A stretch of DNA of 63,954 nucleotides, filler included, from Octopus bimaculoides (taxonomy: Eukaryota): assembly GCF_001194135.2 (NCBI RefSeq). It is 6 parts of 6 records of this genome, joined end to end, with 100 filler letters (N's around TTAATTAATTAA, not from the genome) between each part and the next. Parts side by side here need not be neighbours in the genome. Positions count along the whole stretch, not along the records: positions 25,718 to 41,374 come from NC_068987.1; positions 41,475 to 57,349 come from NC_068983.1; positions 57,450 to 61,234 come from NC_068995.1; 3 more parts are not named here. One strand, given 5' to 3'. Positions 32,941-57,800 of this stretch are shown here, in pieces (within the stretch, counting starts at the first letter, position 1; each line of letters begins with the position of its first letter). The position numbers and the translations under genes were made by a program. The notes beneath the pieces were generated by a model that searched no databases, was not told the DNA's origin, and worked only from the letters and a program-made list of their open reading frames with translations.

Positions 32941-33215
32941 ATACCGGCCATGATGAAATACCACAAGGTATAGAAAATACGTATTCGCCTTTAAATATTT
33001 AATCCTTTATATTGAACACTCAATATTTCATCTATTCAATAAGACATATTCCATATATTCAATAAGACATTCAATACTTTATTTCATTGTACCATCCATT
33101 TTTATTTTATATTATATATTGTATATTCCATATTCTATATCCCACATTGGTTTTGCAGGAATATAAATAAAACATAAAAAACAGACAGTGTTGGAACTCT
33201 TTTAAACAAAATAAT
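32941..33215 (+). mobile_element. AT-rich repeat of about 280 bp beginning with a hammerhead-like motif (copy A)
   Basis: Reverse complement of 57510-57800; distal 80 bp nearly identical. Confidence 0.75.
32946..32989 (+). ncRNA. Hammerhead-like motif with non-canonical CAUGAUGA core (copy A)
   Basis: GGC-CAUGAUGA-A-AUACC-ACAA-GGUAU-A-GAA-AAUACGUAUU-C-GCC, with a perfect 10-nt palindromic stem III. Confidence 0.5.
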
Positions 33216-36084
33216 ATATATATATATATATATATATATATATATATATACGCGAAAATTATGCCGCCTCTTCATCCCATTTATGTCATTAGATATGTTG
33301 AGGTTTCTATTTAAACAAATATTTCCAGATTTACGTGTGCAACATTGAACTGAGAGGAAAATGATCGATTCTATTCTGTCACGATTTCTTCCATTATGTC
33401 ACGTCAGTATTCTGCGCAAAGAATGTTCTTTTCTCATTCACGTATTTAAAACATAATGACGAACATAGAAAGCAAAATCCAAACAAAAGTTAAATAATAT
33501 GGTAGCACAATATATTAAAGGTAATTTTTAACACTGACCTTTGAAGATTAAATGTAGTTAGGTTGTGTAACGGAAATAGATACATTTCTAAGATAATACA
33601 TTTAGAGTTTTCACCGAAAGATCTGACAGGAAGACAAAACTATATTTCAAACAGACAATACCAAATAAAGATGGCGAGAGAGATTTTAGAGAAAATTATA
33701 TTTCTGCTTCTCTTTCTTTTCCTGTAACTTTCTTTTTTTTCCTTCTCCTTCCACTCTCTCTACATATGTATTACATACGTGGTGTATGATACAAGTGTGT
33801 TTGTTTGTTTGTGTGAGAGTAAGAGAGAGATTCTCGTCTGAATTCTTCTCAAATCTAAAATTCTCTAAAGGGCACCTCTGTGACATTCTCTCGCTTTTTC
33901 TCTTTCTCCCTTTCCATCTCTCTCTCGCTCTTTCTCTTTCTCTCTTTCCATCTCTCTCTCTCTGTCTCTCTCTCTGTCTCTCTCTCTGTCTCTCTCTCTC
34001 TCTCTCTCTCTGTCCCTTTCTTGCTCTCATCCACTCTTTCACTCTCTGTTCGCCTCTATCTCCCACCCTCACTCCCGGCTGATATCTACTCTCAACCCAA
34101 ACCAGGAGCATTTTCAAATCATCTTTCACCTATTCTCCCTTTAGTTATTAACTCCACTTGATTATATTATGCCGACTGGCGTATGTTTATATGGGAACCA
34201 CTTCTGCTCTCGTTGCCTCATCACGCATTTTTGTTTGAATATTTTGTTTTACTTTTCTGAATCTGTTGCATGTTTTACTCCCTCCCATTGTACCTAATAC
34301 TGCGGTTCCCAACCGTTTAATTTGATAACGCATTGTGACAAAACAATAGAACTGTAGTAAATTTTTAAAATATATTCCAATTAAACGTAATTAATATACG
34401 ATACAATTCTTGGGTAACCTGTTTTTTGTGTTTTGTTTGCCATCCATATTTTGTAAAGTTTCCATTAATGGCTGATGGTAGGACAGATTCACGGATATTT
34501 TGCATTTTATCACATTTCTAATTGTGAACAGTGCTGAATTATGACGCCAGAATATTTTATTTCATATCCCAAGCTTGGTAGCCACTGGTCTAATGTGGTA
34601 TAGGTGACTTAGTTTTGTAATTTGTACCAGTTTTACACCTGTAGCAAAAAAAAAGATAGTTGAAAAAATCTGGAGTTGGACTATCAAGTAATTAATTCGA
34701 AGATTATATGTTTAAACAGGTCGTAGGAGAAATATTATTGCACCCAGACGTAACACTCTATTCTTTACCTTCCATTTTTCACATAATTGTAGTGTATTAA
34801 ACAATAAATAAGCAGGAGATGTAACATACGTTAGGTGGAGGGGTTATTATCGTATTATTGCACTTGTTTACGCAGAATCCGGTGCTAAATTATAACCTAA
34901 AACTTTCAGCCAATATGTAGTTTATTGTCCGAAGAAAGTGAATGTAAATTGATGAAAGAATGAATGCAAATTGACATCCTAATGATTTTATATAAGTGAT
35001 CTATGTGATATAACCAATGTACAGGACATATATATGTTTTACATGACATGAAAACCATACATATATTTTATAGAATTACATTTATGCTGGGTGTACCTAA
35101 ACTGTTATTTCTGAAATACTCTAGATACCACAGGAAGGTACCATACAAGTAGATGCCTGTGGACGTAACGAAGGAGTTCTTTATGTTCTCTTTGTGAAAT
35201 GTTGGTATGTCACTGTCATTACTTCCGGTTTCTATCACAATTCATTTTCATTTTTTAGGACACTAAAATGTATATTAACCAAACGTTCTAGTTTAGGTTC
35301 CATCGATAAAGAGAAGCATAACTTATTAACTGTTTTCCCCGTATTTTAAATATTTGTGTCTGTCGAGAATCAATTTGTAATTCTTCTTCTGGACAAAGAG
35401 TGTTAAAAAGAATCAGTTGTTTGACCTTTTCCTAATCTGATGTAACGAGAAATCAGTGATTAGCGCTATTGACTACAGAAGAGTAATTCTTTTAAGCTAA
35501 TACAAGTCATAATTTTGAAACTGCAACTTCACAAGCAAGCCAAGCATGCAATAAGCATATGTCGTTAGTTTAAAGTGTTGCTCCAATATATGCTTGGCTT
35601 CTTCTTCTTCTACAGCTAGACAAAGTTGGTCATTGTAGGTTAAGTATCTTAATTCATAGAGACACCGTATAGCGTTAAGGAGTTAGGAAGAAGGAATATT
35701 CTTGAACAGTCTAGAAAGTCAGTGAACGTAAAATTATAAACATTATCATCATCGTCATCATCATGGTGTCAAGTGTTACCTGTTTACGCTAGAAATTAAG
35801 TTATTCCCAGACGAACAAACGAAGCATTCATCGTGTGTTTACTTGACTTATAAGCCGTCCCAGCTGGTTAAAGACAAGAAGGACACACTGAAAACAAGAT
35901 ATGCGGGTTGGTCAGGGGTGGAACGCCATCGATTAAAAAGATATACTCAATCAAGATTGATCTGAGAGTAAATGACAATATTAGCAACTACAATGTACAT
36001 AACTTATATAATCGCATTTCGAATCTACCAACTTTATTTTGATTTATGATATTTAATTTTAAATTATTATCGTTGTTGCTGGTT

Positions 36085-36235
36085 TTCTGTGTTCAAATTC
36101 CACTGAGGACGACTTTGCTTTTCATCCTTTCGGGATTGATAAATTAAGTACCAGTTGAATACTGGAGTCGATATACTTAATAAGTCCCCTCCTCCAAACT
36201 TTCAGGCCATGTACCTTTAGAATATAGGATTATTA
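36085..36235 (+). mobile_element. SINE family D, partial
   Basis: GTTCAAATTCC...TTTCATCCTTTCGGG...TAAATTAAGTACCAGT...CAGGCC, followed by (TAG)n. Confidence 0.7.
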
Positions 36236-36448
36236 TCATTATTATTGGTGGTAGTAGTAGTAGTAGTAGTAGTAGTAGTAGTAGTAGTAGTAGTAGTAGT
36301 AGCAACATCAGGAACAGAGCTGGAAAGTAAATGGGATACGGTTCCATATCACAACATAGTGTTTGTTCTCATTATTATTATTTCTAACCCTTGTGTTTGN
36401 NNNNNNNNNATTAAACTATATTTAATTTGAAGTCCCTTGTTTCTGCAG

Positions 36449-36755
36449 ACCTGAAAAGCAGGGGGAGGAGAGAGGGGGAGAAGGGAAAGAAGGAAATTCG
36501 AAGACGGAGGTAAAAATTAGCTGCTTCTCTTCAGTAATTCAAAGAAATACGCTTATAGATTCCCCCACCCCCACCGAATCCGAATTGCGACGGCTGCTTT
36601 GCAGCTGTGAACACCGTAGCACAACCCCCGCCACCATCTCCAGCAAAACTAGCGCCTACGATGTTGAATTTGTTAGAAGACACGAAGTTATAAAAATAGT
36701 TGAAGATTTATTAGTTTCAACAGATAACGACTTTACCGACCCTGGAATAGTTTGA
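36449..36755 (+). CDS. Candidate terminal exon of an unknown gene
   Basis: Acceptor CCCTTGTTTCTGCAG at 36448, then 101 open codons (PEKQGEERGGEGKEGNSKTEVKISCFSSVIQRN...KIVEDLLVSTDNDFTDPGIV) to TGA; AATAAA at about 36910. Missed by the ORF track because it has no start codon. Confidence 0.35.
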
Positions 36756-56085: not shown

Positions 56086-57349
56086 TATTATTATTATTAT
56101 TATTATTATTATTATTATTATTATTATTATTATTATTATTATTATTATTATTATTATTATTAGTAGTAGTAGTAGTAGTAGGTGTTGTTGTTGTTGTTAT
56201 AGTAGTAGTAGTAAGCACAAGTAGATTCTAAATACATTACTGCGTGTTATTTGCTCGCTTTCGAGTGCAGTGGATTTACTTTCATATGAATGCAATACTG
56301 AGAAGCAATAGTAATAACAAGATGAAGATTTTTGATAAAAGCAGCTTATTGTAACAATGGGGTCAGGGGTTGATTTTATTATAAGAAAGTAATTGTACAT
56401 ATAACACGTATGAAGTACGCCGCTGTAATAACATTGAACATGTTATTACCTATAATAATACTTGGAGTAAAAATAAATACAAAGACATCCTTAAGCTATA
56501 CTTACTATCAAGAAGAGAATTATAAGGTGGGGCAATATAATCTAAGGTATTAGAGTTATGCACACGTATACAAATACACAGGTTAGTCTTATATATATAT
56601 ATATATATATATATATATATATATATATGTATATATATATATGCACACACACATACACATATACGTACAACTATGATAATATATTTGCACATACACACAT
56701 ATACCCTTAAATATACATATACCCATGTATTATATATGTATATATATATATAAGCACACACACACATACACACGCATGCACCCCTCTTATATGTGTGTAT
56801 ATATATGTTTGGGTGTGTATATGTGTGTGTGTGTGCGCGCGCACACATACATATTTGTATATCTTCATAAACACCTATGCGTACATGTTTGTACATGTAC
56901 ATGAAGGAATTATTGAATATAATATCTGCTTATTTATGATGTAAGTATACTTCATTTTTAAACTTCTTAAATATGTGTAATAAAACATTTTCTTTCAAGT
57001 GCAGTAACACTTAAAAGGGATCAATATTGTATATTTTCATATCAAATTCTGTAAACATCCATCTGTAGTTCCTATTCTCCGTCGAACTCACTCTATCAGT
57101 TTCCGTCTCTTTGTATGTATATTTGTTTGTGTGGATATATGTATGTGGATATATATGTGTGTGTGCGAATGAAGTGCCTCTCTTGTGTCTAAAACAGCAA
57201 GTATTATGTAAATTTTCATTTAGAACTCTTGCGTTAACTGGCGTTGCAAATAGAATTGCTACTGAAACAATCATGACGAATCATTGAAAATGTGTTAAAG
57301 GAATTTTTTCGTCTTCTTTTCACTGGCGTGTGTGTATATGTGTACATAT

Positions 57350-57449
57350 NNNNNNNNNNNNNNNNNNNNNNNNNNNNNNNNNNNNNNNNNNNNTTAATTA
57401 ATTAANNNNNNNNNNNNNNNNNNNNNNNNNNNNNNNNNNNNNNNNNNNN
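57350..57449. other. Artificial scaffold spacer
   Basis: N44-TTAATTAATTAA-N44. Confidence 0.95.
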
Positions 57450-57509
57450 TATATGCGAGTAAAAATAAATACAAAAAAGGTTGTTTTTTGTATGATTGTG
57501 TATAGAGGA

Positions 57510-57800
57510 ATATATTATTTTGTTTAAAAGAGTTCCAACACTGTCTGTTTTTTATGTTTTATTTATATTCCTGCAGAACCAATGTGGGGTATAGAATATG
57601 GCATATATAATATATAATATAATATACAATATATAATATAAAATAAAATAAAATAAAAATGGATGGCACCATGAAATAAAGTATTGAATGTAGATGAAAT
57701 ATTGAGTGTTCAATATAAAGGATCAAATATATAAATATAAATATAAATATATAAAGGCCACTCGAGTTTCAGGGCTATTTCCCTTCGTCATGGCCGGTAT
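57510..57800 (-). mobile_element. AT-rich repeat beginning with a hammerhead-like motif (copy B)
   Basis: Homologous to 32941-33215. Confidence 0.75.
57756..57795 (-). ncRNA. Hammerhead-like motif with non-canonical CAUGACGA core (copy B)
   Basis: GGC-CAUGACGA-AGGG-AAAUAG-CCCU-GAA-ACUCGAGU-G-GCC, with a perfect 8-nt palindromic stem III. Confidence 0.48.

Follow-up and report, generated by a model that had tools for sequence, protein, structure and literature searches.

The question raised by this locus is whether a hammerhead-like RNA motif, whose stems differ completely between two copies of one repeat while the core departs from the canonical sequence in both, reflects decay or a hammerhead variant that has spread with its carrier. 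The copies are located in a 63,954-nucleotide (nt) stretch of Octopus bimaculoides DNA (assembly GCF_001194135.2; six parts joined end to end), herein called the window, which is AT-rich and contains many microsatellites and retroelement fragments. Elsewhere in the window, one stretch has a 65% match to a protein annotated as Octopus bimaculoides. We propose, with a probability of roughly 0.55, that the motif represents a type I hammerhead variant in which an extra A has become fixed. It would be carried by a high-copy repeat, likely a Penelope-type retroelement, would form dimers within the same subfamily, and would likely cut weakly or only with the help of a protein.

The repeat family and its core

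Copy A (32941-33219, plus strand) and copy B (57800-57510, minus strand) agree at 196 of the 233 positions aligned outside the motif (84%, E 2e-64). The two-copy repeat described in the initial annotation is thereby confirmed; the near identity of its flanks holds for the distal 90 nt (88 of 90 identical), whereas the middle of the repeat differs by indels. A third copy was not found within the window. The only letters common to both 5' motifs are ATACCGGCCATGAYGAA, GAAA, and GCCTTTA. Stem II is AUACC/GGUAU in copy A and AGGG/CCCU in copy B, and the stem III palindromes are AAUACGUAUU and ACUCGAGU, respectively; these sequences were reproduced as first written, and the pair of copies provides a clean example of stems replaced inside near-identical flanks.

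The motif is not a product of chance. A full descriptor, comprising the 8-nt core, a stem II of at least 4 base pairs (bp), GAAA, a perfect palindrome, and a 3-bp stem I, had two matches in the window, while one match was observed in 1 of 200 dinucleotide shuffles and two matches in none of the 200. Degenerate motif scans of viral and metagenome collections returned unstructured chance matches, and none of the 238 fetched among the matches listed combined stem II with a perfect palindrome, as both window copies do. In exact searches, no match to the conserved 3' end was found in viral, metagenome, or bacterial-genome collections.

Four public runs aligned to 32890-33214 revealed a high-copy family. 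Two DNA runs (X1 and X3) contributed 4830 and 5069 contigs and a probable RNA run (X17) 79 contigs, and 816 raw reads were observed in an RNA run (X24), approximately 6 per 100 of the run portion read. Two insect-metagenome RNA runs that contain part of the same words were excluded. The summed depth over the motif was approximately 1 million, compared with 26-120 for single-locus-like contigs; this depth is not a copy number, and the family has at least hundreds and likely thousands of copies. The complete indel table holds one entry within the motif, the loss of a single base at 32956 in 3 of 128 reads, and no deletion at 32948-32950 is listed in any of the four runs. Because loss of the extra base is absent from this listing, CAUGANGA is the family core strand and not the outcome of decay. 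Substitutions within 32941-32993 are absent among the 40 of 192 listed; the listed ones reach down to approximately one-fifth of the reads, and thus the remaining ones should be rarer. With indels and substitutions nearly absent from the motif, CAUGAUGA is therefore the subfamily A consensus. Near-fixed differences of the reads from copy A were observed at 32915, 32919, 32940 (83 of 84 reads), and 32994 (236 of 244 reads). The differences at 32940 and 32994 are private changes of copy A, and the family letter at 32994 brings back a pair that lengthens stem I. The 8-nt CAUGANGA is present in both copies and in the read consensus, and a 7-nt CUGANGA strand with C3-G8 or U3-A8 is absent. The non-canonical core noted at the outset is consequently the family consensus, and not the remnant of a CUGANGA consensus that would have marked both copies as decayed.

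Hammerhead positions are given herein in the commonly used numbering. Position 17 is C in copy A (32986) and G in copy B (57759). In the initial annotation, the G of copy B was considered a block to cleavage, and G17 is reported to strongly impair minimal hammerheads (PMC3884650); it also shifts the predicted fold. The G is indeed present at 57759, but 21 RNA reads follow copy A to 32957 and then show the stem II and palindrome of copy B with C17 (agreement 0.94). Because these reads carry the stems of copy B with C17, subfamily B is real, and it has the upstream flank of the family together with the CAUGA strand. G17 is thus a private change of copy B and uninformative on the family. Copy A and the subfamily B reads retain GAAA, A15.1-U16.1, and H17, whereas copy B itself has G17. 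In both subfamilies, the arrangement A-stem II-W-GAAA replaces the usual G10.1-C11.1, with A-U at the base of stem II in subfamily B and A.A in subfamily A. Since this arrangement is shared as well, the extra A and the missing G10.1-C11.1 appear from the sequences to travel together.

Predicted fold and carrier element

The motif of subfamily A (32941..32994, plus strand, from the sequence and the read consensus) comprises stem I at 32946-48/32987-89, with 3 further bp beyond a 2x2 pyrimidine loop in the read consensus, the 8-nt core strand at 32949-56, stem II at 32958-62/32967-71 with the unpaired A32957 and A32972 on either side, GAAA at 32973-76, the palindrome at 32976-85, and C17 at 32986. 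The extra A at 32950 has two possible readings, an insertion that separates C3 from U4 or an A3 preceded by an inserted C. In subfamily B (57751..57804, minus strand, with family likeness beginning at approximately 57804), the parts are stem I at 57795-93/57758-56, the core strand CAUGACGA at 57792-85, stem II at 57784-71, GAAA at 57770-67, the palindrome at 57767-60, and the private G17 at 57759.

A type I topology, with three stems around the core and both ends in stem I, was predicted, in which stem III is stable only as a dimer; the monomer motifs were not predicted to adopt the hammerhead fold. The initial annotation of a type I hammerhead-like motif with a dimer-type palindromic stem III is supported. 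The predicted minimum-energy fold is a double hammerhead for the A+A dimer (-23.5 kcal/mol) and for the dimer of B with C17 (-27.7 kcal/mol), and differs from a double hammerhead for B with G17 and for the A+B heterodimer. The palindromes pair with themselves at -8.3 and -10.7 kcal/mol and with each other at only -0.1 kcal/mol, and the A+B double hammerhead fails because of this lack of cross-pairing. In the simplest arrangement, C3 would pair with G8 and the extra A would bulge out ahead of U4; an A3 facing G8 instead would likely abolish activity. A shifted register, with the A as position 3 and a U as position 17, was rejected, as it fails in subfamily B, where a G is at 16.1. An AUG formed from the extra A was also rejected as the start of a shared open reading frame (ORF), which stops after 7 codons in copy A and within approximately 25 in copy B.

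Herein, we propose that the repeat carries, close to its 3' end, a type I hammerhead variant whose core strand has a fixed extra A. Through the stem III palindrome, two copies of one subfamily would associate into the predicted double hammerhead, and the predicted cut would fall after C17 (32986|32987), likely weakly or only with protein help. Because both departures from the usual core are common to subfamilies with unrelated stems, the stems were presumably rewritten or exchanged under selection for the fold after the A was fixed. A bolder version, which is possible but doubtful in our view, considers the motif an active subclass with an 8-nt core (A3a), a remodelled base of stem II, and thousands of copies in the octopus, in which the palindrome would be a self-recognition key such that only like RNAs form a cutting dimer. 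If this is true, the subclass would be invisible to Rfam and to CUGANGA descriptors.

The anatomy of the carrier is consistent with a retroelement. An AT-rich body and a conserved A/C-rich 3' end follow the motif in copy A (32995..33213, plus strand, with a (TA)n run at the end), and the body and conserved 3' end of copy B (57510..57750, minus strand) contain local TA-rich expansions. The upstream flank at 32890..32940 (plus strand) is common to many family copies, of which copy B has only approximately 4 nt. The read depth continues upstream to 32890, the edge of the aligned stretch, in all bins of all four runs, although falling off, while the family likeness of copy B starts approximately 4 nt before the motif, adjoining a TA run; the 5' end is thus variable. 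The 3' end is fixed and leads into (TA)n or (GT)n (52 RNA reads). Copy A is located within an 807-nt stretch bounded by two (TA)n runs (32407-33213), and 32407..32889 (plus strand), up to the (TA)n run at 32373-32406, is a candidate for a further 5' part. The proposal of a short non-autonomous element was not upheld, as the family reaches further 5', at least to 32890. A fixed 3' end, a variable 5' end, and microsatellite or AT-rich surroundings are Penelope-like traits, and microsatellite neighbours have been described for clades of Penelope-like elements (PLEs). Because of the palindromic stem III, the AU-rich flanks, the microsatellite neighbours, and the position of the hammerhead shortly before the 3' end, a Penelope-type parent and retroposition with 5' truncation are suggested by analogy.

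A decayed GIY-YIG domain, suspected by eye upstream of copy A, was rejected: Pfam gave no families in six frames, a profile of 120 Penelope-type proteins gave E above 0.5, and the best tblastn match (E 0.089) was exceeded by at least 15 of 100 shuffles. A miniature inverted-repeat transposable element (MITE) is unlikely because terminal inverted repeats other than the flanking (TA)n are not found among the 25 of 74 pairs listed. A weak colinear likeness between 32702-32933 and 32992-33206, ending in register, was equalled in 5 of 500 shuffles and could represent an old tandem unit. The repeat is present in RNA reads. In these reads, 78 A>G and 69 T>C places were observed at 32890-33214, compared with 4 and 6 in DNA contigs, and this excess likely reflects heavy A-to-I editing on both strands, with no DNA of the same individual for comparison and the strand not resolved. 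At 33157-33158, a pyrimidine-rich tract leads into an acceptor-like AG. Three single DNA contigs have a joint at 33159, as if these were spliced retrocopies, but no RNA read has this joint.

Other elements were also observed in the window. A decayed canonical minimal hammerhead of another family (4990-5050, minus strand) has a 7-nt core, a bulged A, a 5-bp stem II, and GAAA. A Penelope-type reverse transcriptase (RT)/endonuclease frame at 15434-17071 (minus strand) has 545 open codons and 39-49% identity to the 120 listed among 466 relatives, and the 3' end of this ORF recurs as an inverted copy on its 5' side (14965-15409 and 16951-17383). No hammerhead core was recognisable behind this ORF, and it was rejected as the source of the repeat, its 3' region being unrelated. 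A second, decayed Penelope-type fragment with a GIY-YIG-like stretch is located at 12772-14141 (minus strand); a relative of it lies inside an Octopus Ig-domain protein model, possibly a gene-model artefact. Imperfect inverted arms flank a (TA)n run at 31285-31463, which is hairpin- or MITE-like, and several fragments at 796-8071, 26448-27283, and 54671-55457 resemble by eye the RT and restriction-like endonuclease regions of retroelements tentatively labelled non-LTR (long terminal repeat).

Evidence against the proposal and rival explanations

Several observations weigh against a functional hammerhead variant of Penelope type. The Rfam hammerhead models matched neither copy at E up to 10, and the fold of monomer A is not notable (z -0.47). 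The CUGA turn is reported to tolerate almost no substitutions (PMC9901934), and a 2-nt insertion near C3 in a saltern hammerhead made cleavage 425-fold slower in 4 M LiCl, with rescue upon its removal (PMC3088659). Subfamily A carries A.A at the base of stem II. In X1, the loose-end consensus for subfamily B, from 14 contigs with a median of 13 letters (agreement 0.86), departs from the palindrome in two letters and is not palindromic. A third perfect palindrome, AGTATACT, would speak for the proposal but is seen in a single X17 contig, where position 17 is A and the stem I strand is a different one; the core of this contig is outside the visible part. The view of substitutions covers 40 of 192, leaving 152, and 269 further loose ends are outside the listing. 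No whole-unit tandem junction, which could supply a partner in cis, was found among 15 of 20 joints listed, nor was a tandem arrangement found in the window. The flanks searched, which cover 530 nt ahead of copy A and 800 nt ahead of copy B, yielded no remnant of an RT or GIY-YIG domain, and the Penelope link is therefore indirect. Moreover, the RNA sequencing (RNA-seq) 5' ends that had been anticipated at the predicted sites did not appear, as no pile-up of read starts or ends at the predicted cut is listed in the four runs. Standard RNA-seq need not show such ends, and none were reported for a cutting lizard element (PMC11167929).

The missing read ends would also be expected if the extra A had inactivated a master element that amplified anyway, with stem II-III modules acquired by template switching from other hammerhead families. 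The insertion of a lizard Penelope element in vitro was unaffected by hammerhead mutants (PMC11167929), Naiads are reported to amplify without canonical hammerheads, and changes near C3 are damaging (PMC3088659, PMC9901934). However, canonical donors would bring G10.1-C11.1 right before GAAA, whereas both subfamilies have A-stem-W-GAAA, and the pairing, A15.1-U16.1, and H17 are retained in both subfamily consensuses; we regard this scenario as rather unlikely. The self-pairing of the palindromes and their negligible cross-pairing, together with a core that deviates from the catalytic consensus, might instead reflect a non-cutting motif kept as a subfamily-specific signal for RNA dimerisation or protein binding. 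This is improbable, as UGANGA, GAAA, and UH are all retained and would be unneeded in a mere dimer signal. Foldback synthesis of DNA that regenerated the hairpins and palindromes, with no selection acting on the RNA, would account for unrelated stems between alike flanks, and local duplications are common in the repeat body. However, two separate stems have changed, each at exact hammerhead boundaries (A15.1, U16.1, H17, and GAAA), which none of the 238 chance pattern matches keep, and foldback synthesis is thus a highly improbable source.

The nature of the carrier has a rival of its own, namely a non-LTR retrozyme with tandem units of approximately 275 nt that spreads through circular RNA, in place of a Penelope pseudo-LTR (pLTR) remnant. 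The size of the repeat is within the 170-400 nt described for retrozyme monomers, and the 230 nt upstream of copy A are weakly colinear with the body and in register, as noted above. A second hammerhead core was not found one unit upstream, however, the 3' loose ends enter microsatellites rather than a new unit, and the canonical loop-loop architecture is absent, which makes a retrozyme carrier hardly probable. The Penelope-type variant with a fixed extra A is the reading we prefer. Few parts of the core are as resistant to change as the C3-U4-G5-A6 turn, and a natural family nonetheless keeps an inserted A there in subfamilies whose stems are unrelated. Either an alternative core is tolerated, in which case descriptor searches would miss whole families of animal hammerheads, or the fold is kept without catalysis, and either outcome bears on the open question of the role of Penelope hammerheads.

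Comparison with known systems

The rewriting of stems with preserved pairing, observed in both copies, was overstated as a peculiarity of this repeat. Metazoan Penelope hammerheads have been described as extremely variable within a genome, with compensatory changes, a stem III that is palindromic, and an additional base behind A9; a dimer arrangement was proposed for them and weak cutting in vitro was reported (PMC4209133), and thus the turnover of stems with kept pairing is not new. The novelty of the variant is likewise qualified. The literature searched, excluding the work of Lunse, Weinberg and Breaker, which may hold such variants, yielded no animal retroelement with an A between C3 and U4, and no string match to the same insertion was found in 11 supplements of Perreault et al., within the limits set by alignment gaps and picture figures. 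However, Perreault et al. (2011, PMC3088659) list naturally occurring hammerhead insertions near C3 as well as behind A6 and A13.

Like the PLE hammerheads of Cervera and De la Pena (2014, PMC4209133), the octopus motif is of type I and has a short stem I, a palindrome in stem III, an extra nucleotide behind A9, AU-rich surroundings, and a dimer-type fold. It likewise occurs in many dispersed single copies and varies extremely within the genome, with compensatory changes. In Fig. S3 of that report, all 56 of 56 rows have a 7-nt core starting with C or U followed by UGA, whereas the octopus core has 8 nt; moreover, the octopus motif lacks G10.1-C11.1, has a long palindrome of 8-10 nt, and shows no ORF link in the searched flanks. 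The saltern HHmeta and HHphage hammerheads also have an insertion between stem I and U4 with other core residues kept, but in HHmeta 2 nt (G2a and C2b) precede an intact C3, in three rare, weakly active examples from saltern viral DNA (PMC3088659). The octopus repeat, by contrast, comes from an animal, is high in copy number, and has a dimer-type stem III; its insertion is a single A, read after C3, which is fixed. The Poseidon element PAc of Anolis has a hammerhead shortly upstream of an A/C-rich 3' end and, like the present repeat, lacks RNA-seq ends at the cut site, whereas that hammerhead has a canonical C3-G8 core, overlaps the ORF start, and has been shown to undergo protein-assisted cleavage (PMC11167929); this lizard hammerhead is reported to cut only with the protein of the element (PMC11167929). 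Non-LTR retrozymes are likewise transcribed, high-copy, and built from a short non-coding unit that holds one type I hammerhead; they differ in forming tandem arrays and circular RNAs and in having canonical cores supported by tertiary contacts (PMC7229834; bioRxiv 10.64898/2026.07.22.740005). Among these systems, the octopus motif, which is hammerhead-like by prediction and lacks the 7-nt core of the class, is best described as a real variant of the Penelope-type dimeric hammerhead, with a changed core throughout its high-copy family.

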